DNA of 64,000 nucleotides from a virus (taxonomy: Duplodnaviria; Caudoviricetes), in the IMG/VR virus record IMGVR_UViG_3300033463_000023, positions 32,001 through 96,000 of that record, one strand, 5' to 3'. Each line of letters begins with the position of its first letter. Position 1 is the first letter of the stretch. Below are positions 11,026 through 51,173 of this stretch, one piece after another. Under the pieces are notes generated by a model. That model was given only the letters and a program-made list of their open reading frames with translations, was not told where the DNA came from and searched no databases. A program made the position numbers and the translations under genes.

Positions 11026-11029
11026 CACG

Positions 11030-11380: not shown

Positions 11381-11397
11381 TTAAAAGGAATACGATT

Positions 11398-12030: not shown

Positions 12031-12059
12031 ACACGAATTATCACGAATTGACACGAATT

Positions 12060-12617: not shown

Positions 12618-12679
12618 TTCGTGCAATCCGTGCCATCCGTGGTCAAGAAAAAATAATTAGTGATTAAAAACATGGCGAT

Positions 12680-13444: not shown

Positions 13445-13498
13445 GGAGGACTGACCACGAATTAAACGAATTATTCACTTAACAAACATTTTGGCGAT

Positions 13499-29585: not shown

Positions 29586-30575
29586 ATGACTAAAGAGAAG
29601 TACATGGCGCTTGCCGACTTCCAGAGCCTCTGGACGAACTCGATCAAGCCGTACATCGTGGCCGGCTTCATCGCGATGCTGGCAAGTGACGCAGCCAACG
29701 CCAAGAACCTCGTGCTGGCCGACGGCACGAACATCGCACAGTCGACGTTCATCGCCGCCACCGAGAAGGGCGCCAACAGCGGCGTGGCAACCCTCGACGC
29801 GACGGGCAAGGTGCCCAGCTCGCAGCTGCCCAGCTTCGTCGACGACGTGCTGGAGGGCTACCTGAACGCCACCGACGGCAAGTTCTACGAGGAGGACACC
29901 TACCAGACGGAGATCCCCGCAGAGGGAGGCAAGATCTATATCGACCTCTCCAACGGCAAGACCTACCGCTGGGGCGGCTCCACCTACGCAGAGATCTCAG
30001 CAGGCCTGGCACTGGGCGAGACCCAGGGAACCGCCTACGAGGGCTCCAAGGGTAAGGCCAACGCCGACGACATCGCCCTCCTGAAGACCGACAAGGCCAA
30101 CAAGAGCGAGATGGCCATCGAGGCCGTCAGCGGCGACTCCACCAAGAAGACCATCACGCTGAAGGACGGCCTGTCCCAGGACGTGATCGTCGCCCACCAG
30201 GACATCAGCGGCAAGCAGGACGAGATCGACGCATCGGGCATCCTGAAGGGTGACGGCTCGGGCGGCGTGACGGCTGCCGTCGCCGGCACCGACTACCAGG
30301 CACCGCTGGTGGCAGGCACGGACTACCAGACCCCGCTCGTTGCAGGCACCGACTACGTGGTGCCCGTCTCCGGCAAGGGCCTGTCCACCGAGGACTACAC
30401 CACGGCCGAGAAGACCAAGCTCTCCGGCATCGCCGCCGCCGCGCAGGTCAACGTCATCGAGACCGTGAAGGTCAACGGCACCGCCCTGACCCCCGACGCC
30501 AACAAGGCCGTCGACGTGACGTTCGAGATCCCCGAGCGCGTCAGCTCGGCAGACCTGGCCACCTTCGTGGTATAG
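29586..30575 (+). CDS. tail/head fibre-like protein
   Basis: GVATLDATGKVPSSQLPSFVDDVLE and GKGLSTEDYTTAEKTKLSGI fibre motifs; 3x VAGTDY repeat. Confidence 0.75.
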   Translation: MTKEKYMALADFQSLWTNSIKPYIVAGFIAMLASDAANAKNLVLADGTNIAQSTFIAATEKGANSGVATLDATGKVPSSQLPSFVDDVLEGYLNATDGKFYEEDTYQTEIPAEGGKIYIDLSNGKTYRWGGSTYAEISAGLALGETQGTAYEGSKGKANADDIALLKTDKANKSEMAIEAVSGDSTKKTITLKDGLSQDVIVAHQDISGKQDEIDASGILKGDGSGGVTAAVAGTDYQAPLVAGTDYQTPLVAGTDYVVPVSGKGLSTEDYTTAEKTKLSGIAAAAQVNVIETVKVNGTALTPDANKAVDVTFEIPERVSSADLATFVV

Positions 30576-30665: not shown

Positions 30666-31808
30666 ATGACGAAAGCAAGATACATGGCGCTGGCGGACTT
30701 CCAGTCCCTCTGGGACGGCGCCATCAAGCCGTGGATACGGAGCCTCGGCCTGGACGTGACGGACATCGCGTCCCTCGCCGCGGACTACGTGTTCAGCCCC
30801 GGCGAGACGGTGGCCCTCAACGGGTCGCTGTACCGCTGCACGAGCGCGACGCAGGCCACGCCGCTGACGCTGGCCACCCAGGGCGGCAGCCTCGTGTACG
30901 TGGAGCTGAACGGCCAGCGCGCCTACGCCGTCACCGGCACGACGCTCAACGCGGGGTGGCAGAAGGTGACGGACGTCGACGACAAGTTCTGGGCCGAGCA
31001 GCGCCTGGCCACGAAGGCCGCCAGGGCGACGACGCTCTCCGGCTACGGCATCGGCGACGCCTACACGAAGGCGCAGGTCGACGCCCTGACGAGGCACACC
31101 CGCCTGACCGACTTCGACCTGGCCACGCTGAGGAAGGCCGTCGCGGACCAGAACCTCGAGAAGTACGGGCTGAAGGTCGGCGACCAGAAGACCATCAACG
31201 GCAACGTCTACATCATCGCGGGCCTGAACCCGATGAAGGGCAGCACCCTGCAGACGTACCCGTGCACGGCGGACCACGTCGGCCTGATCGTCGTCCCCGA
31301 CGCCGCCGCCCTGGCGTGGAACGCCAGCGGCAACACCTACACGGGCGCGGGCGGCAGGGGCGCAGGCTACGCGAACAGCGACCTGCACTACTATCTGAAG
31401 AACACGGTACTCCCGCTGGTGAAGGCCGACCTCGGCGAGGACAGGATCCTCTCCCACGGGAAGCTGCTGACCAACGCCGTGAACCAGAGCGGCTACAACC
31501 GCCTCGGCGGGAACACGGGCTGCGCCTCCGGGCACGCCTGGGAGTTCAGCTACATCGCCGCCCTCTCGGAGGCGCAGGTCTGCGGCGGGACGGTATGGAG
31601 CTCCTCCGGCTACGACACCGGCGAGGCGTCCCAGCAGCTGGAGGTCTTCAGGAAATACAAGTACACGGAGCTCTTCGGCGTCAGCGGCGTCTGGCTCAGG
31701 GACGTCGTCTCGGCCACCGAGGCCGCCTTCCTCTGCGAGTACGGCCAGCCGTCCATGCGCGCGGCGACGTACCAGTACAAGGCCGCCGCGCTCGTCCTGT
31801 TCCACTGA
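30666..31808 (+). CDS. tail fibre/receptor-binding protein
   Basis: TTLSGYGIGDAYTKAQVD fibre motif; C-terminal WLRDVVS region resembling lectin-fold tips. Confidence 0.7.
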   Translation: MTKARYMALADFQSLWDGAIKPWIRSLGLDVTDIASLAADYVFSPGETVALNGSLYRCTSATQATPLTLATQGGSLVYVELNGQRAYAVTGTTLNAGWQKVTDVDDKFWAEQRLATKAARATTLSGYGIGDAYTKAQVDALTRHTRLTDFDLATLRKAVADQNLEKYGLKVGDQKTINGNVYIIAGLNPMKGSTLQTYPCTADHVGLIVVPDAAALAWNASGNTYTGAGGRGAGYANSDLHYYLKNTVLPLVKADLGEDRILSHGKLLTNAVNQSGYNRLGGNTGCASGHAWEFSYIAALSEAQVCGGTVWSSSGYDTGEASQQLEVFRKYKYTELFGVSGVWLRDVVSATEAAFLCEYGQPSMRAATYQYKAAALVLFH

Positions 31809-31823: not shown

Positions 31824-32501
31824 ATGGAAGCAATACAGATCATAAGAGACACCGCGCCGTTCCCCGAGACGGAGCGCGTCAGCGAGGCGCAGGTGAACTT
31901 CTACTTCGACCGGTCGGAGCGCCCCTACGGCGACGGCACGCAGTACATGGCCGTCGTGGCGGAGGTTGAGCTCCCCGCCGAGGAAGGCAGGGAGGACGAC
32001 GTCAACGAGGTGAAGGCCCTCGCGCTGCCCGCCGTGAAGGAATACCGCATCGGCCAGATCGGCGAGTACGACAGGAGCAGCAACGTGAACTCCTTCAGCC
32101 TCGGAGCCGTCAGCATGTGGCTCACCGTCGACGAGAGACAGCGGCTGGCCACGCAGATCAGCGCCAACGAGGCCATAGGCAGGGAGAGCATGAGCAAGTG
32201 GTTCGGAGGACATGAGTTCTCCTTCCCCGTCGCGGCATGGAGGCAGATGCTCGTGGCCCTGGAGGTATACGCCGGCGACGCGCTGAACGTCACCGAGAGC
32301 CACAAGGCCGCCGTGAACGCCTTGGAAGATACGGACGAGGTCCTCGCCTACGACTTCACGGCCGGCTATCCCGAGAAGCTGGCGTTCCCCTACCCCGGCC
32401 CGGAGCCTGAGACCGAAGAGGAACCCGGGGAGCAGGAGGAGGAGCCCGTAGAGGAGCCCGCCGTGGAACCGGGTAACGAACCTAAAGGAGAAGAGTCATG
32501 A
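31824..32501 (+). CDS. DUF4376-like tail fibre assembly protein
   Basis: I.EYD.S.NVNSF...MWL...R...LEVYA...NVT..HKAAV...YDF..GYPEKL pattern directly after the fibre gene. Confidence 0.75.
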   Translation: MEAIQIIRDTAPFPETERVSEAQVNFYFDRSERPYGDGTQYMAVVAEVELPAEEGREDDVNEVKALALPAVKEYRIGQIGEYDRSSNVNSFSLGAVSMWLTVDERQRLATQISANEAIGRESMSKWFGGHEFSFPVAAWRQMLVALEVYAGDALNVTESHKAAVNALEDTDEVLAYDFTAGYPEKLAFPYPGPEPETEEEPGEQEEEPVEEPAVEPGNEPKGEES

Positions 32502-32770
32502 AGAAGAAGCTCATAACAGTCCTTACCGTCGCAGGCGCCCTGTTCAGGGCGAACAAGGGAGCGATGAGTGAGTTCACCATCCTCCTGCTCGTGACGCTCA
32601 TTTCCGGACTCCTGTCCGGCAGCGCCCTCTGCGGCGCATGTACGGGAACCGTCGCGAACGCGGGGCTCGGGAAGGTGCTCGACCTCCTCCGCCTCTCGTT
32701 CTCGTCCACGCCCCGCCCGGCAGTCCTCGGCATCGCCGTGGGCACGCTGCTGGCGCTGGCGATACTTTAG
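32498..32770 (+). CDS. small membrane protein
   Basis: Hydrophobic; ATGA overlap. Confidence 0.55.
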   Translation: MKKKLITVLTVAGALFRANKGAMSEFTILLLVTLISGLLSGSALCGACTGTVANAGLGKVLDLLRLSFSSTPRPAVLGIAVGTLLALAIL

Positions 32771-32813: not shown

Positions 32814-33230
32814 ATGAACACAATTTCTTTTCTAAACGCAATGAAGGAGGTATTCTCCACTCTCGGTGCGAAAACTTCTGACAGCAACTATGGTGTTGCA
32901 CTTCTTGACAAGACCTCAGGCGAGCCCAAGGGCCTGATGGGAATGTCCGACCTCGCCTCAGTTCTGGGCGGTGCTATAACAAGATTTGTAGATGCAAATA
33001 CCATACTTTCAAACATTACAGATGATGCTAATGTTTGTTGGGGACGCGGAGTAGATACGCCATCTGATGCTCCCTTTTATGCCGCTGGTGTATGTATGGT
33101 GAAAAAAACACAATATGGGTGCATTCAAGTGGCATTTAAATCTGCAGGTGAATTTGACGGGTTTTATATTAATCAACGTTGGATGACTACCTGGTCTGGC
33201 TGGAAAAAGAGTATTGTGACCAATGTATAA
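32814..33230 (+). CDS. shufflon expression gene: 50-aa constant region fused to cassette 1 (adhesin/fibre tip)
   Basis: Only array gene with a proper AT-rich leader and ATG; site TTCTGGGCG at 32962-32970 after SDLASV; cassette ends WSGWK. Confidence 0.88.
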   Translation: MNTISFLNAMKEVFSTLGAKTSDSNYGVALLDKTSGEPKGLMGMSDLASVLGGAITRFVDANTILSNITDDANVCWGRGVDTPSDAPFYAAGVCMVKKTQYGCIQVAFKSAGEFDGFYINQRWMTTWSGWKKSIVTNV

Positions 33231-33236
33231 AATGTT

Positions 33237-33497
33237 CTGGGCGGCGTGAGATACAATGGAGTTTCACTTTCAGATTTTAATAACGCAAAACAACAAGGAG
33301 CTTATAAGATTGACACAGGAACCGCCAACTTTCCCACAGGTGCGTACCAATACGGATGTTTAGTAGTTTTTAATGCAAATCCTTTCTTGGTACAAATTTA
33401 TTTTCCTGATACGAATAGATTTGTTTTCGTTAGGACACTTTATAATGGCATTGAATTCAGAACTTGGAAAATGATATCAATGGAGGAACTTACATAA
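33237..33497 (+). other. silent cassette 2 (knob-like)
   Basis: Site 33235-33243; LGGVRYNG...DFNNAKQQGAY...TWK. Confidence 0.85.
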
Positions 33498-33574
33498 AGA
33501 GGAGGGAACTACCCCTCCTCTTATTATGCAAACGTAATATGTTTCCATTCTCCCCATACACCATTTTCGACATT

Positions 33575-33928
33575 CTGGGCGTGCCTTATAATACAACAGA
33601 CTCCGATACCTGGCTTGATACAGGTAAAGCTATACGTATTGCAACAAATTGCGGCAGACTCTGCGCTATGGTAATAACAAGATACTCTTGCTATGTGATG
33701 TTAGTAAGCGTATATGCAGGAACTATTAATACAGGTCAGTCTTTGAAGGCAAAACTCTCTGGAAGCGATCTTGGTTTTTATTATGTAACAAATGGCAGCA
33801 AATGTGATCTGTATATTACATCTTCTACGTCTACTGACTGCGTAGTAGTTCCTTTCTGGAACACACCACAAGGCACATTTGAGTTAACACCAGTTAACGC
33901 TTTGCCGTCAGGTGCTGTAGCATTCTAA
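33575..33928 (+). other. silent cassette 3 (non-knob class)
   Basis: Site 33573-33581; LGVPYNTT...LPSGAVAF*. Confidence 0.85.
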
Positions 33929-33932
33929 AGAA

Positions 33933-33956
33933 AAAGGGAGGCTAATACCTCCCTTT
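33933..33956. terminator. bidirectional hairpin between convergent cassettes (example of about 14 in the array)
   Basis: AAAGGGAGG-CTAATA-CCTCCCTTT; near-identical copies at 34241-34265 and 39118-39140. Confidence 0.75.
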
Positions 33957-33957
33957 A

Positions 33958-34236
33958 TTATGTTTGTGTACTAATCCATACGACATTCGCTCTATTTGTG
34001 TCTGACTTTGTAATTGTAATAGATGATGTTGTACATGTTACACCTGTAACACCTGATGCTTCTATTATTTGGGTTACATTTGTTGATCTTGAAAGAGAGT
34101 AAATACCAGGTTGGGAGGTCGAAGAACCTCCAACAGACACAATCAAGAATCCTGAAGCAGTTGATCTCTCTATTGTGATTTCTGAACTTCCAGCAGGAAT
34201 TTCATGCCTTTGATAAGAAAAACCACATACGCCCAG
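33958..34236 (-). other. silent cassette 4 (non-knob class)
   Basis: Variant site TACTGGGCG at 34230-34238; LGVCGFSYQRHEIPAG...WISTQT*. Confidence 0.8.
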
Positions 34237-34266
34237 TAGTAAAGGGAGGCTAATAACCTCCCTTTG

Positions 34267-34557
34267 TTATAATTCCTTCCATGATGACCACGAAACACTG
34301 CCTGGATTTCCCAAACCGTACCTTCCATAAGGAGTGCTGCTTGATCTGTCAATGACAATCTGATACCTATCGTAAGTAGTGTGTATATAAACAAGCAAAA
34401 AACGAGTTGAGGTTGATATTGAAGAAGGAAGATTGGCAGGAGCAGACGATGGTGCGCACATACTCCAATACAATCCTGTTCCTGTTCCTGCTTCAAAATT
34501 TAAATCAGTTAGATTACCAAAATCGCTGCTCTTAATTTTGGTAAAGAATGCGCCCAG
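34267..34557 (-). other. silent cassette 5 (knob-like)
   Basis: Site 34551-34559; LGAFFTKI...WSSWKEL*. Confidence 0.85.
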
Positions 34558-34824
34558 AAGGCTTGCGAGGTCACTTGCTGTGGAGCAATTAAAGCTGTTA
34601 CAGTTACCCCAATCAGACCAGCTTGTACCACTAAAGGTTCTTTGGATAGACCGAGCTAAGGTCGGCTGATAGACGGTCTGCACATATCTACCTCCTGATA
34701 CACCAACTACATCAATTGTCCCCGTATGTCCTCCGGGGAGCAAGTCTGATGAGCAAGTGTATCTTCCTGGTGTCTTCAAATCATCAATCGAATTTCCGCT
34801 GTATGTGGTTACTGCTCCGCCCAG
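34558..34824 (-). other. silent cassette 6: stop-less extender cassette
   Basis: Site 34818-34826; LGGAVTTY...WSDW..CSTASDLASL reads in frame into site 5. Confidence 0.85.
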
Positions 34825-34844
34825 AACCAACTTTTATAGCGGTT

Positions 34845-35099
34845 CTGGGCGTACCAACCAAGTTTGCAAAAGGCGCACTACAAGTATCTGCAGACAATAT
34901 TAACGAAGACGGGGCATGGTTTGTGTATGGCACCAGTGGGTTGAACACGCCTACAAACTACGGAATCCTCGTGTGTCGGAAGTCCGCGACCGCAAATTAT
35001 GGATATACCGGGGTACAGGTATTTTATCCTACGACAGGACAACTTTCTCACAGGATACAGACGTCAGGTAGCGAATGGGGCAGTTGGCAAAACGGGTAA
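34845..35099 (+). other. silent cassette 7 (knob-like)
   Basis: Site 34843-34851; LGVPTKFA...WGSWQNG*. Confidence 0.85.
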
Positions 35100-35136
35100 G
35101 ATAATAAAGGGTGGTACTTAATCCGTCCTCTGTTGC

Positions 35137-35397
35137 CTAAACAGCGATGCCTTCAAATTTTGTCCAACTCCCCCATGAAGATTGTGTCCTAACCCTACAA
35201 TGAATGTACTGTACGACACCACAATGGAACACCACCTGGAGTCTGTTATAATAAGAGGTGCCAAGTTGTAGCGTGACAATTAATGCGTATGCGTCTGGAC
35301 CGCCATGAGCATTGCCCGTAGTTAATGTCATGGTGTTGCCTTCAAGATCATCCAGGGAGGTGTTTTCTTCCATGCTAACGGGTCTCAGGCCGCCCAG
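35137..35397 (-). other. silent cassette 8 (knob-like)
   Basis: Site 35391-35399; LGGLRPVS...WGSWTKF. Confidence 0.85.
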
Positions 35398-35417
35398 AAC
35401 CGCTATAAAAGTTGGTT

Positions 35418-35717
35418 CTGGGCGCACAAGCCACCAAGCCAGTCAATATCGATACGATTAGAGAGGGTGTTTCCTTCTTGGTTATCTCCCGGCCGTTTTT
35501 GAGTGGGTATGAAGGAACTTTTCCTTCTGACATGCAGGCTGGAGGCTATGCGTCTTCTGTGTTCTTGATCAGCGCTGTTTTTATTCAAAACTCCAACGAT
35601 AAAATTGGCGTACAACTGTTGTATAACTGGAATGACGATACTCCAACAGTGCTGAAAAGCTGGTATAGGATATGGGGGTACAATAGTAGGACGTGGAAAT
35701 CATGGAATAGCATTTAA
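35418..35717 (+). other. silent cassette 9 (knob-like)
   Basis: Site 35416-35424; LGAQATKP...WKSWNSI*. Confidence 0.85.
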
Positions 35718-35742
35718 GGAGGCGGGCTCTGACCCGCCCCTC

Positions 35743-36102
35743 TTAACTGTATGGCGTCACGCTTAATTGAGTTGCGCCACTTGGCAACGACGCAGGGCTA
35801 AAGGCTTTTGCACCAATAGCAATTAACGACACGCTCATGCCCGTTACAGACTTTATGTATACCGATTTTCCGTCCATGTATATTTCAATATAACGGTTTA
35901 CGCCAGATTCAACTACGCCATTTTTCCCCTTGGCTGATACCGTTCCGCCATTCCCGTATATCGTAAAGTCTATCGTGCCGCGGCTGTCTTTATAGTCTGA
36001 GCCGATTATCCTGATACATTCGTACAGGTCACATGTTCCAAGATAGTATACCGCATTGTTGCTTAGTCCGTATGCGTTATAAACCCTGCTATTTACGCCC
36101 AG
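35743..36102 (-). other. silent cassette 10 (non-knob class)
   Basis: Site 36096-36104; LGVNSRVY...LPSGATQLSVTPYS*. Confidence 0.85.
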
Positions 36103-36122
36103 AATGATATAGTGAAGACATT

Positions 36123-36401
36123 CTGGGCGGTATTGACGATATATACAAAGGGTCTTTTGCTGTAAACGACACGGTTTCCATAGCACTAAGAGAAGGCTGT
36201 GGGGTATTCTGTTATCGGTTTAAAGGACAGAGCTCCGGCATAATCGCTGTTAGAGGCACGGATATCAAATATTTCACATATACCGATTATGAGGAAGCTC
36301 CTTTAGGGGCAAGACTGAGAGCTGGATCAGATGGTAGCACATTGACCATCACATGTACTCAAGCATGGAATAATCCGTTCCATCTAAAGAGACTGATTTG
36401 A
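36123..36401 (+). other. silent cassette 11 (non-knob class; absent from the ORF track)
   Basis: Site 36121-36129; hand translation LGGIDDIYKGSF...FHLKRLI*. Confidence 0.85.
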
Positions 36402-36405
36402 ATTT

Positions 36406-36689
36406 CTGGGCGATACAGGTCCGGCGATAACGACAGGATCGTGTAACGATATAGTCAAAGCTGGAGTCTACAGACTTCAACCAACTGTTAGCGACACCCC
36501 TTTCGCTTATACTACGTTGTTCGTATTAACGCGCTTGGGTGGTGCTGTCCATCAAATCGGCCTTGATGCTGACAATAGTTATGTGGCATACAGGGTCGGT
36601 GAAAATAATGTGTGGAAAAACTGGTCACGCTGCGACAACTTCGGCTGAGCACGCTTGCCGAGATGAAGGCGGCACTGGCTAATGTATAG
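36406..36689 (+). other. silent cassette 12 (knob-like; 1-nt deletion in the C-terminal tail)
   Basis: Site 36404-36412; LGDTGPAITTGSCNDIVKAGVY...WKNWSRCDNFG* (stop 36648); STLAEMKAALANV* continues in another frame. Confidence 0.8.
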
Positions 36690-36719
36690 TGAGGTGGGAG
36701 CAACAAACTCCCACCCATA

Positions 36720-37004
36720 TTACTCTATCGGAATATAGTAAACGGTAACCGTCGTTCCTGAATCAGCATTATTGATAGTCCATGTTCCCTGATTGTTTGT
36801 CGAAGGCGTCAAGTCTCCCACAATCTTTTCGTTTACATGGAATGTTACATTGCCAGAGCCGAGTCCTGTTGTTATGACAAAATAAACGCCACACTTCTTG
36901 AAGTCACTTTGAAACGCCACAATAAATCCGTGTGCGGTACTGTTTTTGAAAGCGGTGGCACCTATTCCTTTATTTATAACCTTCAGTCTATTATCTACGC
37001 CCAG
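36720..37004 (-). other. silent cassette 13 (non-knob class)
   Basis: Variant site AACTGGGCG at 36998-37006; LGVDNRLK...VYYIPIE*. Confidence 0.8.
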
Positions 37005-37013
37005 TTGTGATTT

Positions 37014-37259
37014 CTGGGCGTATCAAGAATAACTCCGTCAGATTTAAACACTGAGAGTTTCTTCGGAGTATTTAAAACCGACGGACAAACACAGAACAAT
37101 CCCGCTGATGGATCTGCAATGGTGGGCGTACAATTTAGGGGAGAGCCTCTTAGTACCGTCCAAATGCTTTTCCGTAGTGCCTATGGTGAAATATACTATA
37201 GGTCTGGTGTCCCTAACGGCCAATGGTATAAGTTTGTAGGAACGCCTGTTCAGGTATAA
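37014..37259 (+). other. silent cassette 14 (knob-like; absent from the ORF track)
   Basis: Site 37012-37020; LGVSRITPSDLN...QWYKFVGTPVQV*. Confidence 0.85.
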
Positions 37260-37292
37260 TACAATCGGGAGGCGACAGGTCTCCCGATTGTT

Positions 37293-37607
37293 CTACGCAT
37301 TAGCCAGTGCTGTCTTCAATTCAGCAAGTGTGCTGCAACCGAAGTTATCTACCCGTACCCAAACTGACCAGGTTCCGTCGTGTTTTGTTCGATGGTATAT
37401 TTGACCATTTCCTCTGTAATAAGCAGTTTGTGAAACCTCATCAGATGACGATTCGTCACTGGAATTTAATGATTTGACGGTTAAAATACAAAGAGATGGT
37501 TCTGGTATGTTTTGTGAATAACCTGATAATGTATAAGTTCCCGCTATCGTTAATGTATTAGCATCTAAAACTGATGTAGATACATTTCTTACGCCATCTG
37601 CGCCCAG
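37293..37607 (-). other. silent cassette 15 (knob-like with helical tail)
   Basis: Site 37601-37609; LGADGVRN...WSVWVRVDNFGCSTLAELKTALANA*. Confidence 0.85.
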
Positions 37608-37629
37608 AAGTTCAGTTGTGTGTAATCTT

Positions 37630-37875
37630 CTGGGCGGCGTGCCGTCAATGCACACTGCGGATTCTTCTATTGATGCGAACACCTTAGCTGTGCCCGGGTT
37701 TTATCAATCCACTGTTTTTACTAATACACCTATTGCCGTTGGCATTTTGCTTATGCCGTACTATGCAAACGGTTGGTGGAGGTTCCAGTTGTTTATAGAC
37801 CGCTCCGAAGGCCACATGTGGTTTAGGTGTGGCACTTCCAGTTCTTTTGATGCGACCTGGAAACAGATAGTATAA
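37630..37875 (+). other. silent cassette 16 (knob-like)
   Basis: Site 37628-37636; LGGVPSMH...DANTL..PGFY...TWKQIV*. Confidence 0.85.
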
Positions 37876-37901
37876 TATGGATAGGCAAAAACCTATCCAT
37901 A

Positions 37902-38156
37902 TTATACCGTCTTCCATGTTGCCGTTTCTCTGTGTCTCCAATATATTCCAGTGCTTTCCAGATCAAGAACGATGGTGATTATGCCGTTAGTAAGGAATTT
38001 GATTCTTCTTATGTAAACAGAGTTGCTGTCGGAGATGGTTTCAGGCAAACCTTCACACCTTACTGCATATTGGAAAACATAATCACCTAACGGCAAGTCG
38101 TCGAGTGCAAAACTTTTGTCGTTTGCCGTGATTTGTTTTACATAAGCTACGCCCAG
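37902..38156 (-). other. silent cassette 17 (knob-like)
   Basis: Variant site TCCTGGGCG at 38150-38158; LGVAYVKQ...TWKTV*. Confidence 0.8.
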
Positions 38157-38290
38157 GACAACACATGTAATATATGAAAGAGTAAAATGGTCAACATCTG
38201 TAAGCGCGTGGATAGCGTACCAACCACAAACGTAAGAAGGAAAATGTGGCGGAATTAGGCTAAAGAGGAGGGAGCGACTCCCTCCTCTTG

Positions 38291-38563
38291 TCATACCTCA
38301 CCCCACGATCCCCATTCTGTTTCAGACCACCTGGAACGTTTCCACAGCTTTGAGTTCCCTTTTGAGAGACATATCTGGAACCTGACATATTCCGATCGAG
38401 CGACAGAAAGCAGAAGAACCTCATTATTGTTGTCTGGGAAATTTAATGATGCTGGTGTTGCGTCCCTTGCAATAACGTCATGTACACTAAGGCCGTCGTT
38501 TATATTGTTGAGATTCGTGTCCACCTCATATTGAATGCCTTTTATTGCAAGCAATGCGCCCAG
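38291..38563 (-). other. silent cassette 18 (knob-like)
   Basis: Site 38557-38565; LGALLAIK...WGSWGEV*. Confidence 0.85.
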
Positions 38564-38585
38564 AAGATTACACACAACTGAATTT

Positions 38586-38843
38586 CTGGGCGTTATTCGT
38601 TATACAACCTTAATTCCGGCTGGAAGTGATTGCAACGACTTCAAACAGAGTGGCTTATATAATACAGCGGCAAACCTTCAAAATGCGGCATATGCTGGAG
38701 GTCATATTCTTTTCGTTATGAGAGCAGGAGAATATGTCGCACAAATAGCCTTTGATCCAACTGAAGGTAAAGCAAAGCTGAGAACTATAATAGATCGGGC
38801 CGGTTCCACGTATACATGGGTAAACTGGCAAATTATTGTATAA
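38586..38843 (+). other. silent cassette 19 (knob-like)
   Basis: Site 38584-38592; LGVIRYTT...WVNWQIIV*. Confidence 0.85.
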
Positions 38844-38875
38844 ATACAAGCGGGAGCTGCATGGCTCCCGCCTCT

Positions 38876-39118
38876 CTGGGCGGCATAAGGTTGTCCGATA
38901 GTGCAATTGCGAATTACGCAGACATGACAATGTCTGGCTTATATGTGAGAAATCCAAATACACCTCTCTCCGGCTCAGACATTAATATTGGGTGGGATGG
39001 TACATACCTTTTTATTGCCCATCTCAAATTTGGTACTATGGGCTGCTTAGATATTGCTACAGTATACAACCATACCAAATATTGGATTGGTTTTAGCAAC
39101 GACTGGAGAGAATTATAA
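38876..39118 (+). other. silent cassette 20 (knob-like)
   Basis: Variant site CTCTGGGCG at 38874-38882; LGGIRLSD...NDWREL*. Confidence 0.8.
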
Positions 39119-39138
39119 AAGGGAGGGTTTACCTCCCT

Positions 39139-39396
39139 TTAGATATTGGTCATTGTACATTTCTTCCAGGCAGACCAAGAAGCACTGCTGCCTCCTTTGT
39201 ATCTATGTCCAATTATATTCTCAGCGTTGCACGAGAAGAAGACTTGACAGGACATGGAAGATCTTATCATTACGAATACGATGCCAGGGCAGCTAAACGG
39301 ACTGTTAGAACTGTCTATTCTATAAGTTCCGGAGCCGACGGTGTTAAGAGTTTCTGCCGTCAGATCCGCAGAGCCTACATAAGCACCAACGCCCAG
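39139..39396 (-). other. silent cassette 21 (knob-like)
   Basis: Site 39390-39398; LGVGAYVG...WSAWKK. Confidence 0.85.
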
Positions 39397-39418
39397 AAGT
39401 TCAGTTGTGTGTAATCTT

Positions 39419-39673
39419 CTGGGCGCGGTTGTCATAATTGGCACGTTTTCAGATGCAAGCGAATTGGAGAGTCACCCAGTATGTGCGGGACGGGCGTCTG
39501 GATCTGCTACAGGAGTCCCGGAGCAGAATAGTTTTTATCTAAGCATAAAGATAAATGGAGATTACATTTTTCAGATTGGTGTAGGCAAAGAGTCCAACTT
39601 TATATATGTGAGGACAAAGTTCTACGGAGGATGGAGGAACTGGTGGAAAGCTGCGACAACCAAAATTGAATGA
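39419..39673 (+). other. silent cassette 22 (knob-like)
   Basis: Site 39417-39425; LGAVVIIG...WRNWWK. Confidence 0.85.
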
Positions 39674-39733
39674 TAGCATTATAACCATTCATTGCACAAT
39701 GAAAGAGACGGGTTGTTACCCCGTCTCTATTTG

Positions 39734-40084
39734 TTAAAGCAATGTATATGATACGTTGCCGTACCTTTGGATTTCAGACACCATAAGAGCGCCAAACGAG
39801 TTGCCTCCAACGGCAGTACACGTTACCTTCACATCTCCGTCGCTGTTGTCTGACGATGGTGTAAATTCTATATTGATATAATCCGTTTTCACAACAACCT
39901 GTCCATTGAGCAGCGAATCCCTGTGTGCAAGGTTGATAATTGCGCATGCTTGCAAATTAAAGAAATTCCTTGTCACGCAAAGAACGGCGTTTCCCTGCAT
40001 GGGAAGATTTACATTAAATTCGATAACCACAGGATTGCTGGTACCGGAGCTTTTAAAGGCGTATACCACATATTGTGCGCCCAG
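39734..40084 (-). other. silent cassette 23 (non-knob class)
   Basis: Site 40078-40086; LGAQYVVYAF...SYTLL*. Confidence 0.85.
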
Positions 40085-40112
40085 AAAAGAGGTGGGTTAA
40101 TCCCACCTCCTA

Positions 40113-40379
40113 TTATGTTAAAGCAAGGTATTTCCACGATATCCAATTAGAATTGTTTCTTATCCTAAAATAGACTCTTGTCAAATCGGACATTATCCAT
40201 ATTTGCAAGGTGTTGTAATTTGCATTACCTGCGCCAGTAGCAAACGTCAGCAATATTCCCCATTGAGTAGGTAGATTGTGGCTTGAATAACTTGAATCAT
40301 TGACAGAGTAAGCACATGTTGTGAGTACTGTGTTGGCATCTATGTTAGCGATATGACCTTTTGGTAGCACACCGCCCAG
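40113..40379 (-). other. silent cassette 24 (knob-like)
   Basis: Site 40373-40381; LGGVLPKG..DANT...WISWKY. Confidence 0.85.
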
Positions 40380-40399
40380 AATGTCATCGTGTTACCATT

Positions 40400-40639
40400 C
40401 TGGGCGCATTGGTAGAAAAACATATCATGATAGAAGATCCAGACAGTATAAACAACACAGGCATATATCCAGCAACGTTTACATATAAAACAGGAACAGC
40501 CAGGGGAATGCTTGTTGTGTTCGCAGATAGTACAGTTAGTAGTTTTCCGGCCCAACTCTTTATCGGCTATAACGAGTGTATGGTGAGAAGGGCATCTAAC
40601 ACACAAGCATCATCTTGGTTAGATTGGAAAGAACTTTAA
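40400..40639 (+). other. silent cassette 25 (knob-like)
   Basis: Site 40398-40406; LGALVEKH...WLDWKEL*. Confidence 0.85.
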
Positions 40640-40683
40640 TAGGTGGGAGAAAACTCCCACCCATAATTATGAAATAGTCAGCT

Positions 40684-40941
40684 CTGGGCGTAGCAGACTT
40701 CCAAAATTTTTCAGGCAAAGACCTTCCGGATTATGATGCTAACGCACTGGTAACTGGTATTTATTCTACAGCTGCAAACAGAGATTCCAATATTCCAGTT
40801 AACGTTAACGGACTTCTCCTCTGCTTTAAGAGGTCAGCGGTGTATTTTCAGGTTTACATGATAATGGGTAGCTCCATTTTTTACAGGAATTATTTTAACG
40901 AATGGAACGCATGGAAAAAACTGGAGGGAACACCGGTTTGA
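40684..40941 (+). other. silent cassette 26 (knob-like; absent from the ORF track)
   Basis: Variant site CTCTGGGCG at 40682-40690; LGVADFQN..DANAL.TGIY...WNAWKKLEGTPV*. Confidence 0.8.
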
Positions 40942-40971
40942 CAAATAGAGGTGGGCGCATACCCACCTCGT

Positions 40972-41211
40972 TTACTGATCCACCGTTCCTTCAATCTTTC
41001 TCCACGACTGCCATCCTGCTGTCGTTCTGCTACGGGTTAGCACAAATTCCCTATTATAGGGGGCGTAAAACAAAAAGAAATCGAACTTTAAGAGCATACC
41101 GTTAGTGTTGGAGTCAGAAGGCAATCCTTGCAGGCTTGACCCAAAATACAACCCGTCCGCAATTTCTGTTGGGTTTACGTTTGTTATTTCTCCTTTGTTC
41201 ATTACGCCCAG
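40972..41211 (-). other. silent cassette 27 (knob-like)
   Basis: Site 41205-41213; LGVMNKGE...WQSWRKI. Confidence 0.85.
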
Positions 41212-41231
41212 AATGTCATCGTGTTACCATT

Positions 41232-41441
41232 CTGGGCGTTACATTTAGCACCATTCCTTCTACTTCAGATCCATTTCAAGGGTGGCAAAAGATGTGTATT
41301 CAGTTTAAAAACGCTAACGCCGTTACTCAGTTTGCCATTAAACTAACACGCACATCAGGTTTTTCCGTTGCTGTCAGATCAACAGATGACAATTCAGCAG
41401 CCGATATTAACAGCAAAACATGGGAAAACATTAAAAACTAA
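41232..41441 (+). other. silent cassette 28 (short)
   Basis: Site 41230-41238; LGVTFSTI...TWENIKN*. Confidence 0.8.
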
Positions 41442-41467
41442 GGAGGTGGGTTTGTAGCCCACCTTAA

Positions 41468-41719
41468 TTATGTGTTGTCTGTAGCCAAATATGTCCAAGG
41501 ACCTGCCGAGGCTCTCAATGCAAACTTTTTCCCGGATGAAGCGTTGTATGCCATTTGTAAACAATACCCGTCCAGGTGGCTGTTAATCGTCAGGCATACG
41601 CCAAAGGTAAACGGGGCATTTGTGGTTTGGCTGGAAATAACACAGATACTATTTTGTTTGTTGTTGCCAAGTAAATTATCAAGATCGTACTGGCCCGTTA
41701 GTTTGGTTATACCGCCCAG
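41468..41719 (-). other. silent cassette 29 (knob-like; absent from the ORF track)
   Basis: Variant site TCCTGGGCG at 41713-41721; LGGITKLTGQYDLDNL...PWTYLATDNT*. Confidence 0.8.
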
Positions 41720-41722
41720 GAC

Positions 41723-42946
41723 TTACTTCGGTTTCCGCTTCCTGAAGATCTTCTTCGTGGCCTTCTCCGCGGCGTGGTCCCTGTCGAAGGTGTAGTGCGC
41801 CTCGGTGGTCCGCGTGCGGCTCTGGCCGAGGATGGACGTGATGTTCTGGATGGGCATGCCCATCAGCGAGAGGTTCGTGGCGCACGACTTGCGCGCGACG
41901 TGGAAGCTGACGGCCTTCCCGATGCCCGCCATCGCGGCGACCTCCTTGATGACCCTGTTGGCGGTGGAGTTGCACGGCACGCAGTGAGACAGCTCGCGGA
42001 CGTCCGGGTAGCGGCAGAGGATGTCCATGCCCCTGCCCCAGAACAGCGACCTGATCGGCACGGCGACCTGCCGCTTCGTCTTGTGCATCGTCTTGCGCAG
42101 CACGCCGTTCCTGACGGTCGCCTCCTCGAGCGTGGAGAGGTCGCTCCACCGCAGGCCCGTGTAGCAGCCGAGGAGGAACAGGTCGCGCACCCTCGCCTGC
42201 CGCCCGGCGAGCTCCAGGCGCTCCATCCTCGCGATCTCCGCCAGGGAGAGGAACGCCACCTTCGGCCTCATGTTCCCTATCGTGATGAAGCGGAACGGGT
42301 CGCCGGGCATGGCGTCGCGCTTGCGGGCCTCCTCGCAGAGGGCGTGGAGCGCCTTCAGCCGCCCGATGGCGGTGTTCTCGGCCAGCCCCTTGCCGTCGAT
42401 GAGGAAGGCCCTGTAGCGCTCGATCATGTCGTGCGAGAGCTCCTGCATCGTCGTGTGCGGGCGGAACTCCTCGAAGGACCTGGCCAGCGTGCGGTAGCTC
42501 TCCTTCGTCGACGCGCTGCGCCCCGCCGACGGGACGATGACCGCCTCGACCATCTCCGCGACGGTGGCGGACCTCGACACGCGGCTCAGGTAGGCCTCCT
42601 TCACGCGCCGCGGCGTCGGCGCCGCCCCGGCGGCCTCGAGCTCGTCCTCGTGCTCCATGAGGCGGCGGACGATGCGGGCGACCTTGCGGTTCAGGAGGTC
42701 GTAGTTCGGGTCCGTGGGCTGCACCTTCCCGTAGCGGAAGTCCTCCTGGCGGACCCTGACGTGGGTGTTCACCGTGGCCCGCTCCCCGGTGCCGGCCATG
42801 TAGATGCTGACGACGACGGCGCGCGTGCCGTCGGCCGCCACGTACCCGTTCCTGCTGAGGACGGGCCTGAAGGTGATGGTGGATATCATAGGCGTAGGTC
42901 GTTTGTTGTCGTTCATAATATGTACGGAAAACGGGCGGCGTTTCAT
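41723..42946 (-). CDS. tyrosine site-specific recombinase (probable shufflon invertase)
   Basis: TGLRWSD (R), FHVARKS (HxxR), LGQS..TTEAHY (Y); N-terminal arm-like and SAM-like regions; stop abuts site 29; true start may be 42916 or 42889. Confidence 0.92.
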   Translation of the reverse strand: MKRRPFSVHIMNDNKRPTPMISTITFRPVLSRNGYVAADGTRAVVVSIYMAGTGERATVNTHVRVRQEDFRYGKVQPTDPNYDLLNRKVARIVRRLMEHEDELEAAGAAPTPRRVKEAYLSRVSRSATVAEMVEAVIVPSAGRSASTKESYRTLARSFEEFRPHTTMQELSHDMIERYRAFLIDGKGLAENTAIGRLKALHALCEEARKRDAMPGDPFRFITIGNMRPKVAFLSLAEIARMERLELAGRQARVRDLFLLGCYTGLRWSDLSTLEEATVRNGVLRKTMHKTKRQVAVPIRSLFWGRGMDILCRYPDVRELSHCVPCNSTANRVIKEVAAMAGIGKAVSFHVARKSCATNLSLMGMPIQNITSILGQSRTRTTEAHYTFDRDHAAEKATKKIFRKRKPK

Positions 42947-49886: not shown

Positions 49887-51173
49887 CTACTCGGCCTCGA
49901 ACTGGGCCACGAGGTTCTTCACGCCGCCGCCGAACTCGTAGTTGAGCGGGTTGTCGGTGAAGGTCTTCACGCCGTCGCTCCAGCCTGCGAGCTTGAAGCC
50001 GCTTTTAGGCGTGGCGGTCACGGTGATGGTGTCGCCGTCGGCGTAGAGGTCCTTCTGGCCAGAGGTGATGGCCACGGTGCCCTCTGTCTCGTCGGCGCTG
50101 GTCACGGTGAAGATGTCGGCGATGTACTGGCCGGGCGTCCAGTCATACGTGTTGACGGCGTCGTTGCAGGCGAAGTACATCGGGTCGTAGTCGCGGATGC
50201 GGGTCGTGGCGGCCGAGTTGATCTGGTAGCCGATGATCGACAGGTCGTCGTTGGTCTGGCCGATGCGGATGTTGGCCTTTCCCTCGCGCGTGTCGCAGAT
50301 GAACTCCAGGATGTCCTCGCGGCAGACGGCGATGAGCTGTCCGCCGGTACCCATGGCGGCCGAGGTCTTCAGCGTCAGGTTGGGCATCTCGGCAAACTTC
50401 CAGCTGGCCTCCAGCACGGTCGGGGAGATCTGCGGGAAGGTGAGCATGTAGCCCTTCACGGCCAGGCGGCAGAACTCGTCGGAGGCGAGGATGGTGAGCT
50501 TGTTCTCCGGCTTCTTCATGTGGGGATGGAGGGCGCCGTAGAACTTCACGAGCAGCTCGTAGACCTCGACGGGTGTCAGGGGGACGGTGTTGCCGCCCAC
50601 CTGCTTGGTCAGGCCGCCGGTCATGATCAGGTTGCGGTTGGCGACCGAGATGGTGCCGTCGGTACGCTTCTGGGCGATGAGCGTGTAGAATCCGTCGAAC
50701 AGCGAGAGGCCGAGCTTCACCTGGTTGGCGGGTACGTCAGGCAGGTTGCGGTTGGCCTTGTTGCCGAAGAAGATGTTGAAGCGGACGTCCTCGGCGGCAC
50801 GGCCGGCGATCTCCTCCATGTTCTTGCGCGACATCACGGCCTCGTCGGCGGCGTTGACCACGTTGAAGGGGCCCTTCTCGCGGTAGCGCTCGATGCTGTC
50901 CTCGGCCTTGATGTAGTACGGCTCGACCTTCGCGGGGTTGTCCACGATCTTGGCGAGCTGGGAGTTCTTCACGTTGCCCACGCGGTACGGGCGTGCCACG
51001 AGGCCCTTGCGGTTGAAAATCTGACAGACGTCGATGTTCTCCACGTCGGTCGTCACCATGATCCCGAGGTTGCCGAACATGGCATCGTCGAGCAGGTAGG
51101 CCTTGGCCACCAGCTCCTCATGGATCTGTTCCTTGACATGCTGGATGTCACTGATGTTAAGTGCGTAAGACAT
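49887..51173 (-). CDS. major capsid protein with C-terminal Ig-like domain
   Basis: Directly downstream of the prohead protease; strongly biased codons; C-term GDTITVTATPKSGFKLAGWSDG. Confidence 0.75.
   Translation of the reverse strand: MSYALNISDIQHVKEQIHEELVAKAYLLDDAMFGNLGIMVTTDVENIDVCQIFNRKGLVARPYRVGNVKNSQLAKIVDNPAKVEPYYIKAEDSIERYREKGPFNVVNAADEAVMSRKNMEEIAGRAAEDVRFNIFFGNKANRNLPDVPANQVKLGLSLFDGFYTLIAQKRTDGTISVANRNLIMTGGLTKQVGGNTVPLTPVEVYELLVKFYGALHPHMKKPENKLTILASDEFCRLAVKGYMLTFPQISPTVLEASWKFAEMPNLTLKTSAAMGTGGQLIAVCREDILEFICDTREGKANIRIGQTNDDLSIIGYQINSAATTRIRDYDPMYFACNDAVNTYDWTPGQYIADIFTVTSADETEGTVAITSGQKDLYADGDTITVTATPKSGFKLAGWSDGVKTFTDNPLNYEFGGGVKNLVAQFEAE

Follow-up and report, generated by a model that had tools for sequence, protein, structure and literature searches.

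DNA inversion systems that exchange the C-terminal part of an adhesin or tail fibre are known from plasmids and phages and act as host-range switches, but with only 3-7 alternatives. They include the shufflon of plasmid R64, with the tyrosine recombinase Rci, and the serine-invertase phage systems Min, Gin and Cin. Phage shufflons that use a tyrosine recombinase have also been described, namely Rin of Bifidobacterium, with 5 cassettes (PMC6109161), and the BV01-like shufflons, with 6 variants (PMC13596623). A preliminary description of a cattle-gut phage of 144 kb (Caudoviricetes; IMGVR_UViG_3300033463_000023), made from sequence alone, proposed a 29-cassette shufflon diversifying a small adhesin or tail-fibre tip but named only R64 and Min, Gin and Cin as precedents. 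The locus examined here is read as working like the Rin and BV01-like shufflons, with a different site and a different recombinase clade; it is about five times larger, contains a stop-less "extender" cassette, and shares cassettes with other phages.

Organization of the cassette array

The window analysed is a 64,000-nucleotide stretch of the phage record (positions 32,001 to 96,000), and all coordinates refer to it. The 7-mer CTGGGCG was found 29 times between 32964 and 41719, 15 times on the + strand and 14 times on the - strand, each copy agreeing in position and strand with the preliminary description, the observation of which therefore holds. One detail was slightly overstated, in that the exact 9-mer TTCTGGGCG, said to recur 29 times, occurs 23 times, against 0.74 expected in the whole window. 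The other six sites vary in the two T's, such that the invariant core is the 7-mer, with TT present in 25-26 of 29 sites.

Every site opens an uninterrupted L-G-x frame of 69-119 codons. One - strand cassette (34824 to 34558) has no stop and runs in frame through the next site, giving 185 aa. At least 12 cassettes have a stop 1-6 codons upstream and no start codon, and only the site at 32964 is preceded by a 50-codon, ATG-led N-terminus. Cassettes fill 90% of the 8.76 kb, and terminator-like hairpins are more frequent than in shuffled sequences (16 found against 8.1 ± 2.5). The array has ∼42% GC overall (36-49%) inside a 65% GC phage, as compared with 59-75% in the flanks, and GC3 is 0.40 in the cassettes but 0.85-0.97 in the flanking genes.

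The features of the locus are collected in Table 1, in which related loci carry L numbers (L012, L013 and L014 are three samples of one relative), sequencing runs are denoted X1 and X2 (two runs of the probable source sample) and X3 and X4 (contigs of related strains), and individual proteins carry P numbers. The roles assigned in the preliminary description to the genes upstream, a fibre and a chaperone, are only partly supported, because the fibre-like protein has PHROG tail hits but the 225-aa "chaperone" has no significant match.

Table 1. Features of the array and its surroundings (window coordinates; cassettes are named by site position and strand, p or m)
Position	Strand	Feature	Observations
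29586..30575	+	Fibre-like tail protein, 329 aa (context)	PHROG hits to minor tail proteins and phrog_38707; AGTDYQ.PL and GLSTEDYT repeats; ends ..SSADLATFVV
30666..31808	+	Second fibre-like protein, 380 aa (context)	Shares N-terminal MTK..YMALADFQSLW with the 29586 protein; no Pfam or PDB sequence match
31824..32501	+	Acidic protein of unknown role, 225 aa ("chaperone" of the preliminary description)	No Pfam, PHROG or NCBIfam hit; L011 counterpart has only a faint DUF4376 hit
32498..32770	+	Hydrophobic protein, 90 aa, conserved just upstream of the variable gene in relatives	Same 90/91-aa gene upstream in L011, L012, L021 and L037
32814..33230	+	Expressed variable gene, 138 aa (constant part plus c32964p)	Only cassette frame with an ATG-led N-terminus
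32814..32963	+	Constant region, 50 codons, ends ..SDLASV	Near-identical in about 30 metagenome proteins; GC3 0.56
32962..32970	+	Expression site TTCTGGGCG (V|L-G junction)	Junction CTYGCCTCAGTTCTGGGCG conserved in L011, L012 and L021
32964..33230	+	c32964p, 88 aa, knob type, currently expressed	P0110 is an 86% homologue (see text)
33237..33497	+	c33237p, 86 aa, knob type, silent	Expressed in L037 (see text); P0124 is 88% aa identical
33575..33928	+	c33575p, 117 aa, non-knob all-beta type	Alignment A5; model poor, pLDDT 55
33958..34236	-	c34230m, 92 aa, non-knob type	
34267..34557	-	c34551m, 96 aa, knob type; second slot behind the extender	
34558..34824	-	c34818m, extender, 89 aa, knob without a stop; ends ..STASDLASL and runs into the site of c34551m	P0119 carries the constant region, an ∼84% homologue of this unit, then a different second cassette
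34845..35099	+	c34845p, 84 aa, knob	C-terminus of P0118 is 49% alike and sits at an expression site
35137..35397	-	c35391m, 86 aa, knob	
35418..35717	+	c35418p, 99 aa, knob	
35743..36102	-	c36096m, 119 aa, non-knob	Atlas look-alikes are unnamed Bacteroidota and phage proteins
36123..36401	+	c36123p, 92 aa, non-knob	
36406..36648	+	c36406p, 80 aa, knob	
36720..37004	-	c36998m, 94 aa, non-knob	In X4 this cassette, not c41713m, abuts the recombinase gene
37014..37259	+	c37014p, 81 aa, knob	
37293..37607	-	c37601m, 104 aa, knob with a DNFGCSTLAELKTALANA tail	Same tail in L011, L012 and P0117 cassettes
37630..37875	+	c37630p, 81 aa, knob	C-terminus of P0114 is 56% alike and sits at an expression site
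37902..38156	-	c38150m, 84 aa, knob	Open frame upstream is only a terminator hairpin region
38291..38563	-	c38557m, 90 aa, knob	
38586..38843	+	c38586p, 85 aa, knob	
38876..39118	+	c38876p, 80 aa, knob	60% alike to 11137p of L011; 77.5% alike to the second slot of P0125
39139..39396	-	c39390m, 85 aa, knob	
39419..39673	+	c39419p, 84 aa, knob	
39734..40084	-	c40078m, 116 aa, non-knob	
40113..40379	-	c40373m, 88 aa, knob	Joined to the constant region in an X3 contig
40400..40639	+	c40400p, 79 aa, knob	
40684..40941	+	c40684p, 85 aa, knob	X3 joints fall at 40683
40972..41211	-	c41205m, 79 aa, knob	
41232..41441	+	c41232p, 69 aa, knob-like	
41468..41719	-	c41713m, 83 aa, knob-like; site abuts the recombinase stop	Same layout in L012, L021 and L022, with a site 3-4 bp after the recombinase stop
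34818..34851		Back-to-back site pair, spacer class A (34 bp)	Perfect inverted copy at 35391-35424
35391..35424		Back-to-back site pair, class A, inverted copy	Logan contigs of X1 and X2 end here
36096..36129		Back-to-back site pair, class B	
36998..37020		Back-to-back site pair with a short 9-bp spacer	
37601..37636		Back-to-back site pair, class C (36 bp)	
38557..38592		Back-to-back site pair, class C, inverted, one mismatch	
39390..39425		Back-to-back site pair, class C	36-bp Logan contig at about twice the flanking depth
40373..40406		Back-to-back site pair, class D	
41205..41238		Back-to-back site pair, class D, direct copy	
33933..33956		Bidirectional terminator-like hairpin between convergent cassettes	Others at 37869-37908, 38848-38873, 39704-39728, 40089-40109, 40948-40969 and 41443-41465
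41723..42946	-	Tyrosine recombinase, ORF 407 aa; probable start M20 at 42889, giving 388 aa	Arm-DNA-bind_5, Phage_int_SAM_5 and Phage_integrase domains

The adjacent tyrosine recombinase

The recombinase is the only PF00589 match in the 144-kb genome, and its stop codon lies 1 bp from the 9-bp footprint of the last site, as the preliminary description had stated. It abuts the last site here and in every relative examined, and homologues of 58-80% identity sit beside CTGGGCG arrays. Inspection of the sequence showed that the catalytic residues R266, K289, H349 and R352 and the C-terminal Tyr of ..EAHY are present, although the conserved His-II/Trp position is Gln in this clade. A 49%-identical chromosomal homologue lies between divergent paralogous genes with a 91-nt perfect inverted repeat, as invertases do.

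Predicted fold of the cassettes and the constant region

Twenty-three cassettes are pyocin-type knob domains, a fold of receptor-binding tail fibres. A profile built from 51 cassettes hit the R2/R1 pyocin fibre knobs 6CL6, 6CL5 and 6CT8 at E values of 1e-8 to 5e-7, and also the F2 pyocin fibre and a phi812 receptor-binding protein. The AF2 model of c32964p has a pLDDT of 86.8, and its best fold matches are the same R2/R1 pyocin fibre knobs (TMq 0.75-0.78), which supports the tail-fibre-tip reading.

Structure prediction of the fused product, one of the checks suggested at the outset, gave a homotrimer model of the 138-aa protein with an ipSAE of 0.85 against a best control of 0.00. In the calibration of the tool, the mark was reached by 20 of 30 proteins solved as pairs of one chain and by 1 of 23 solved as single chains; here, unlike in the calibration, a purpose-made alignment and three copies were used, and because solved pyocin fibre trimers exist, the pass may reflect likeness. 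Runs agreed in at least 77% of contacts, and the partner pLDDT was at least 65. The interface is mainly residues 1-53, and the 50-aa constant part is modelled as a trimerisation stalk.

Rearrangement at the sites in related genomes

The absence of alternative junctions from reads or relatives had been named in advance as an outcome that would count against a shufflon. Contigs of related strains (X3 and X4) were compared with the array, which revealed that synteny breaks at the sites: 16 of 22 joint ends lie within 4 bp of a site edge, although sites with that margin occupy only ∼6% of the array. The joints include 32962 to 40373 on opposite strands, in which the constant region is fused to a cassette that is silent and inverted here, and 36997 to 41713. 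All rearrangements observed were between genomes or strains and none was seen within one population; they show recombination at the sites but not that it is frequent, reversible or carried out by this enzyme. Three samples of one relative (L012, L013 and L014) were colinear, indicating that the dominant arrangement can be stable and that the switching rate may be low.

Comparison with other phages gave further evidence. The expression site of L037 carries a cassette 95.2% identical at the nucleotide level to the silent 33233-33522, with homology starting at the site, whereas the L037 backbone is only ∼75% identical. P0110 represents the cassette expressed here (86% aa) behind an unrelated upstream frame. 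About 30 metagenome proteins carry the same constant region with different C-termini, and P0119 and P0125 show extender cassettes at expression sites followed by different second cassettes. L021 and L012 have flanks that are 95-98% identical up to the outermost sites, with unrelated arrays between them.

Discussion

The interpretation offered in the preliminary description, inversion at the sites to install a new tip, is supported, with the corrections that tyrosine-recombinase phage shufflons were already described and that inversion within one population is still not shown. The anatomy is that of a shufflon, with a constant 5' part, start-less in-frame cassettes in both orientations behind one short site, and an adjacent tyrosine recombinase. 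The analysis itself establishes this anatomy, the knob fold, recombination breakpoints at the sites between genomes and the sharing of cassettes; that this recombinase catalyses the events, that they occur at high frequency within a population, the exact cleavage positions and the effect on host range are inferences. That the locus is a phage-encoded multiple site-specific inversion system is held with good, although not complete, confidence. Only 7-9 bp are conserved among all 29 sites, which is short for a tyrosine-recombinase target, and how specificity is achieved is not known. In addition, fifteen direct-repeat sites would allow deletions unless the enzyme is biased towards inversion, and no virion or receptor data tie the 138-aa protein to adsorption.

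An alternative that is considered unlikely, but the most plausible of those weighed, is that the array is a slowly changing archive, in which cassettes are exchanged between co-infecting phages or rearranged only on evolutionary time scales by rare site-specific or short-homology recombination, the expressed tip being effectively fixed within a population. The restriction of all observed rearrangements to comparisons between genomes and the colinearity of L012, L013 and L014 are consistent with this, and the Gln at the His-II position could mean low activity. However, maintenance of 28 intact, in-frame, stop-free silent cassettes with their own terminators argues for regular use of each, as do the exact conservation of the 7-bp core, the dedicated recombinase abutting the array in every relative and the invertase-like context of chromosomal homologues. 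Moreover, the closely related strains of X3 and X4, with cassettes 95-99% identical, already differ by many site-to-site joints.

It is very unlikely that the cassettes are independent small genes of a paralogous family that happen to share an N-terminal Leu-Gly motif, with the recombinase being just the phage integrase. Mechanical ORF calling does find GTG/TTG starts near some sites, and the recombinase has an integrase-type architecture with an arm-binding domain and is the only one in the genome, but the start-less cassettes with close upstream stops speak against this, as does the fact that the shared element is a DNA word invariant even at codon third positions rather than a protein motif. 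The same cassettes are also found fused to the constant region in other genomes, and the array lies between the constant gene and the recombinase in all relatives. An assembly artefact, in which strain variants were collapsed into one contig and the cassette count inflated, is also very unlikely. The 34-36 bp back-to-back site pairs are repeated and short-read graphs break there, with X1 and X2 Logan contigs ending exactly at them, so the order and orientation of some blocks in the deposited contig could not be verified. Nevertheless, all cassettes are distinct sequences without duplicates, the two runs of the probable source sample cover almost every block at similar depth (X2 all 30 depth bins, X1 24 of 30), overlapping contig ends are consistent with the given order, and relatives independently show 13-19 cassettes.

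In the favoured model, one promoter-proximal gene (32814) encodes the constant stalk, ending at the site TT-CTGGGCG (Val|Leu-Gly), and 28 further start-less cassettes lie downstream, each beginning with the 7-bp core in the same reading register and most followed by a terminator hairpin. The recombinase, which has the Bacteroidota integrase architecture, is inferred to recombine the expression site with any oppositely oriented site, thereby inverting the intervening DNA and fusing a new cassette to the stalk; cassettes on the + strand would become reachable after a prior inversion. The extender, ending in a copy of the constant-region junction plus a site, would open a second variable slot, giving roughly 28 + 28 possible proteins. 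Given that most cassettes are ∼85-aa pyocin-type knob domains, the product is read as a small trimeric tail-tip or receptor-binding protein whose specificity domain is swapped. Cassettes are also exchanged between phage backbones that share the site, so that, in this view, the array behaves as a shared, fast-turning-over library.

Organization of the cassette array

The window is bases 32001-96000 of a 144,188-bp IMG/VR virus record that is rated complete by CheckV. Within the array, the word CTGGGCG occurs 29 times, 15 on the + strand and 14 on the − strand, so that the observation made in the preliminary description, including the position of every site, was confirmed. The 9-mer TTCTGGGCG occurs 23 times in the same interval, compared with 0.74 occurrences expected in the whole window, and a position count over the 29 sites showed that only TT plus the 7-mer is conserved. 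One further exact copy of the 9-mer lies outside the array, inside a 428-aa gene with a Flg_new_2 domain. It is probably a chance match but is a potential off-target site.

All 29 sites are in the same register, each opening a frame that starts Leu-Gly and runs for 69-119 codons. One cassette has no stop codon and continues through the linker ..STASDLASL and the next site into the following cassette, giving 185 aa. Cassettes fill 90% of the 8.76 kb. At least 12 of them have a stop 1-6 codons upstream and no possible start, and only the first has an ATG-led 50-codon N terminus. An ATG-led extension of 46 codons upstream of site 38150 was considered as a second constant region, but this was rejected because it is a terminator hairpin region. 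Terminator-like hairpins are enriched (16 compared with 8.1 ± 2.5 in shuffles) and sit between convergent or tandem cassettes.

The array has 36-49% GC, compared with 59-75% in the flanks. GC3 is 0.40 in the cassettes, 0.56 in the constant region, and 0.85-0.97 in neighbouring genes, including that of the recombinase. The same contrast occurs in two related phages, L011 and L037, and implies either that cassettes keep arriving from low-GC phages or that their composition is held by selection. A second low-GC island (35-54% GC in a 65% GC genome) holds ORFs without Pfam matches, one of which has a weak Tad3-like (Thoeris inhibitor) hit below the cut-off.

Eighteen sites form nine back-to-back pairs with spacers of 9, 16, or 18 bp. 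The spacers fall into classes that recur as identical sequences within the array, in both orientations (class A twice, class C three times, and class D twice). One such 30-bp unit is 100% identical in two other phages whose cassettes differ (L018 and L031). The spacers are therefore probably functional and may form the non-conserved arm of both sites, although no explanation for their conservation and reuse was found. That the pairs of 34-36 bp are lox-like full sites recombining only within a spacer class was considered and rejected as the main mechanism, because the expression site and ten other sites are single and the observed joints connect single sites with paired ones.

Coordinates of features in the window and in related sequences
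Feature	Sequence	Position	Strand	Remarks
Second low-GC island	window	~6000-13000		
ORF with weak Tad3-like hit	window	12680-13444		within the second low-GC island
Tail protein	window	24428		phrog_3267
Fibre-like protein	window	29586-30575		PHROG minor-tail hits
Fibre-like protein	window	30666-31808		
Cassette array	window	32964-41719		29 sites
Silent cassette c33237p	window	33233-33522		region matched by L037
Non-knob cassette	window	33575	+	all-beta type
Non-knob cassette	window	34230	−	all-beta type
Stop-less extender cassette	window	34824->34558	−	
Nine site pairs	window	34818-41238		
Non-knob cassette	window	36096	−	all-beta type
Non-knob cassette	window	36123	+	all-beta type
Non-knob cassette	window	36998	−	all-beta type
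Non-knob cassette	window	40078	−	all-beta type
Recombinase ORF	window	41723-42946	−	stop 1 bp from the last site
Isolated copy of TTCTGGGCG	window	50668-50676		in a 428-aa gene
2815-aa open reading frame	window	54906-63353	−	not examined
30-bp unit shared by L018 and L031	L018	12327-12356		
30-bp unit shared by L018 and L031	L031	1479-1508		
Unrelated arrays between near-identical flanks	L012	11177-15193		
Unrelated arrays between near-identical flanks	L021	1603-5213		
Two-cassette form	L036	10001-10701		
Chromosomal homologue and paralogous genes	L015 (also L016)	8084-13701		

The recombinase

The recombinase ORF carries the Arm-DNA-bind_5, Phage_int_SAM_5, and Phage_integrase architecture (PF17293, PF13102, and PF00589) typical of Bacteroidota integrases. 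Homologues start at its Met20, giving a protein of 388 aa. Residues R266, K289, H349, and R352 and the C-terminal tyrosine of ..EAHY are present, completing the catalytic R-K-H-R-Y set. By contrast, the clade that sits beside CTGGGCG arrays has Gln in place of the conserved His/Trp (LGQ instead of LGH), whereas more distant homologues keep His. It is the only PF00589 match in the genome. Among GenBank phages, the best match is at 27% identity and all matches are Bacteroidota phages.

Predicted fold of the cassettes and of the product

Searches of Pfam, PHROG, and NCBIfam returned nothing for the 138-aa product or for single cassettes. However, an hmmsearch with a profile of 51 cassettes from this phage and two relatives (profile A2) matched the knob domains of the R2/R1 pyocin tail fibres 6CL6 (E 1e-8), 6CL5 (8.8e-8), and 6CT8 (5e-7), and also an F2-pyocin fibre and a phi812 receptor-binding protein. 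Structure prediction had been named in advance as a test of the fusions. The AF2 model of the expressed cassette has a pLDDT of 86.8, and the top three Foldseek matches are the same pyocin entries, with TMq of 0.75-0.78 and rmsd of 1.9-2.3 Å. This assignment applies to about 23 of the 29 cassettes. The other six belong to another all-beta type that could not be assigned. The AF2 model of this class was poor (pLDDT 55), so no fold search was run, and the Atlas gave only unnamed clusters.

The 138-aa product is modelled as a homotrimer with a score of 0.85 compared with a best control of 0.00, the interface lying mostly in constant residues 1-53. In the calibration of the method, the mark was reached by 20 of 30 homo-pairs and 1 of 23 monomers. 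Runs agree in at least 77% of contacts, and pLDDT is at least 65. The calibration used two copies and other alignments, and solved pyocin-fibre trimers exist, so that the pass may reflect likeness.

The gene lies within a tail gene block. Upstream are a tail protein and two consecutive fibre-like proteins that share their first ∼20 residues (MTK..YMALADFQSLW), as if they were alternative fibres docking to one adaptor. The first of these ends ..SSADLATFVV, which resembles the cassette linker SDLASV. PDB sequence searches gave nothing for these three upstream proteins. They are followed by a 225-aa protein with no match and a conserved 90-aa hydrophobic protein.

Related loci in other genomes

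The recombinase has about 100 unnamed homologues in metagenomes. Those at 58-80% identity all sit next to CTGGGCG arrays, with 19 cassettes in L011, 14 in L012, L013, and L014, and 13 in L021; L018, L022, and L023 are cut by contig ends. A JGI contig (L031) has 13 sites. In L011, two or three cassettes are chained in frame by S.L..LASALG linkers. Cassette repertoires are almost entirely different between phages, with at most 60% amino acid identity. L036, a 40% GC phage with the same constant stalk, has only two sites, with one expressed and one inverted cassette flanked by ∼18-bp inverted repeats, and no recombinase homologue lies within 10 kb. This is a minimal, two-cassette form of the system.

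In a Bacteroidota chromosome (L015), a 49%-identical recombinase lies between two divergent paralogous genes of 628 and 729 aa. Their 5′ parts carry a 91-nt perfect inverted repeat, and further inverted homologies lie at their far ends. This setting is invertase-like and is probably an invertible surface-protein switch.

Scans of IMG/VR, from which the record containing the window was excluded, found no relative with the recombinase protein, with the double-site pattern (two chance hits), or with the expression-junction pattern. A search for the exact 138-aa protein returned only the contig of the source sample.

Evidence for recombination at the sites

Comparison of cassette order in related phages, and a search for alternative junctions of the constant region, had been put forward beforehand as tests of switching. 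Contigs of two 2025 runs (X3 and X4) hold many of the cassettes of this phage at 95-99% identity but in another order. Of 22 joint ends, 16 lie within 4 bp of a site edge. These include 32962<->40373 on opposite strands, which is exactly the junction that an inversion between the expression site and cassette c40373m would make, and 36997->41713, where a different cassette abuts the recombinase gene. X3 contigs at 90% likeness or more do not cover the recombinase or fibre genes. This gap was not used as evidence, and the contrast between cassettes and backbone rests on L037. The latter phage carries at its expression site a cassette 95.2% identical in nucleotide sequence to the silent c33237p (corresponding protein, P0124). 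Homology begins at the site, while the L037 backbone is only about 75% identical.

About 30 metagenome proteins have the near-identical constant region fused to different tips. In addition, the metagenome protein P0110 is the cassette expressed here (86% amino acid identity) behind an unrelated upstream frame. P0119 has a homologue of the extender cassette at the expression site followed by a different second cassette, and P0125 has another extender followed by a 77.5% homologue of c38876p. L021 and L012 are 95-98% identical up to the outermost sites, where homology stops exactly, and are completely unrelated in between.

The preliminary description's interpretation, that inversion between the expression site and an opposite site installs a new tip, is supported by these comparisons. 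Coexistence of inversion isomers within one clonal population or virion preparation was not examined, as assembled (Logan) contigs rather than raw reads were used. Contigs of the probable source sample (bovine gut; X1 and X2) show no alternative joints and merely break at the repeated site pairs, but contigs drop minor variants, so this says nothing about switching. Recombination at the sites is thus documented between genomes, whereas movement by inversion is inferred.

Proposed mechanism

The locus is most likely a shufflon, a reading held with good confidence, in which the recombinase inverts DNA between the expression site and oppositely oriented sites and fuses a new knob to a constant trimeric stalk. 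The crossover must lie in or next to the 7-9 bp word, because the letters shared at the joints number 7-8. No explanation is offered for how so short a site gives specificity. Bacteroidota integrases of this architecture, such as IntDOT, tolerate heterology in the overlap region, a property not tested here. The AT-rich composition fits cassettes circulating among phages that include low-GC backbones (L036 at 40% and L012 at about 45%).

Comparison with described systems

The closest described layout is that of the Rin shufflon of Bifidobacterium and Eggerthella prophages (Mavrich et al. 2018, PMC6109161; PMC8778435). There, a constant 5′ part of a receptor-binding protein gene is followed by start-less variable 3′ cassettes in both orientations, each following a short asymmetric repeat, and a tyrosine recombinase with arm-binding, core-binding, and catalytic domains sits at the far end. 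Inversions were mapped to the repeats by comparing genomes and virions. The present locus has the adjacent tyrosine recombinase, the single constant part with start-less in-frame cassettes, and the breakpoints on the repeats with different cassettes at the expression site. However, Rin has 5 cassettes and an 11-bp rix site, TTCCCTAACCC, whereas here there are 29 cassettes and a 7-9 bp site, TTCTGGGCG, the recombinase is of the Bacteroidota type, and the product is a tiny protein with a 50-aa stalk. Extender cassettes, back-to-back site pairs with reused spacers, and cassettes shared between diverged phages are further differences. The system works like Rin but, with a different site and with orthology of the recombinases not tested, is not shown to be a member of its lineage.

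The BV01-like Phocaeicola vulgatus phage shufflon (PMC13596623, a 2026 preprint) also belongs to a Bacteroidales phage with a recombinase beside a multi-cassette region, which overlaps the distal end of a tail-fibre gene, and all configurations were seen in reads. It has three cassettes, six variants that differ by stop position, a 1.7-kb region, and a 10-bp motif, TGGGAGAACT, compared with 8.8 kb and 29 knob or beta-domain cassettes here. In the R64/IncI shufflon (Rci tyrosine recombinase, sfx sites, and PilV adhesin; Komano 1999, PMC9881135), multiple inversions at short asymmetric sites swap the C terminus of an adhesin, with segments that hold convergent cassette pairs and only a 7-bp core plus one arm conserved. 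That system has 7 sfx sites and 7 C termini, a different recombinase and site, and as its target the type IV pilus adhesin of a conjugative plasmid, not a phage protein with pyocin-knob cassettes.

The Gin/Cin/Min/Pin invertible segments of Mu, P1, and p15B and the FRphi Gin shufflon (PMC13418256) likewise swap phage tail-fibre C termini by DNA inversion to change receptor specificity. Those systems use serine invertases with enhancer/Fis dependence and have 2-6 alternatives, whereas the enzyme here is a tyrosine recombinase. Integrons provide a functional analogy only, in that promoterless cassettes sit behind a short recombination site beside a tyrosine recombinase and are shared horizontally among different backbones. 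There are no attC hairpins and no attI here, the cassettes being bounded by a 7-bp word, and the integron-integrase model TIGR02249 scores 34 bits against a cut-off of 265. The cassettes are gene 3′ ends fused in frame, not whole genes, and their movement is inferred to be by inversion, not excision and insertion.

Phage shufflons are already known. No report was found of this recombinase clade, this site, or an array of this size. The present system is about five times larger, is built of minimal stalk-plus-knob modules, has extender cassettes, and shows evidence of cassette sharing and wholesale array turnover.

Implications for phage host range

A more far-reaching possibility, somewhat less likely than not but not excluded by the data, is that the locus is an open cassette library shared between phages. 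In this view, a conserved 7-bp site and a conserved stalk let diverged phages (40-65% GC backbones, recombinases 58-80% identical) trade receptor-binding knob modules of about 85 aa by site-specific recombination, and stop-less extender cassettes let the phage stack modules combinatorially. Arrays would grow to 29 cassettes, be replaced wholesale between near-identical strains, and keep a foreign, AT-rich composition. This would be an integron-like economy of host-range modules.

The locus also offers a compact natural scaffold for studying how small binding modules are swapped, namely a 50-aa stalk modelled as trimerising plus an exchangeable 85-aa knob. The recombinase is inferred to act on a very short site, and its homologues sit in probably invertible loci of Bacteroidota chromosomes. 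The family is common in public gut metagenomes but has no cultured or annotated representative in the collections searched.

Host range is the main limit on what a phage can infect and on its use as a tool. The known inversion switches give a phage 2-7 receptor-binding alternatives, and diversity-generating retroelements give many more, but only as point variants of one fold. This locus would give one phage about 28 ready-made, unrelated binding modules, and about twice that number with the extender, which it appears to draw from a pool shared with other rumen and gut phages.
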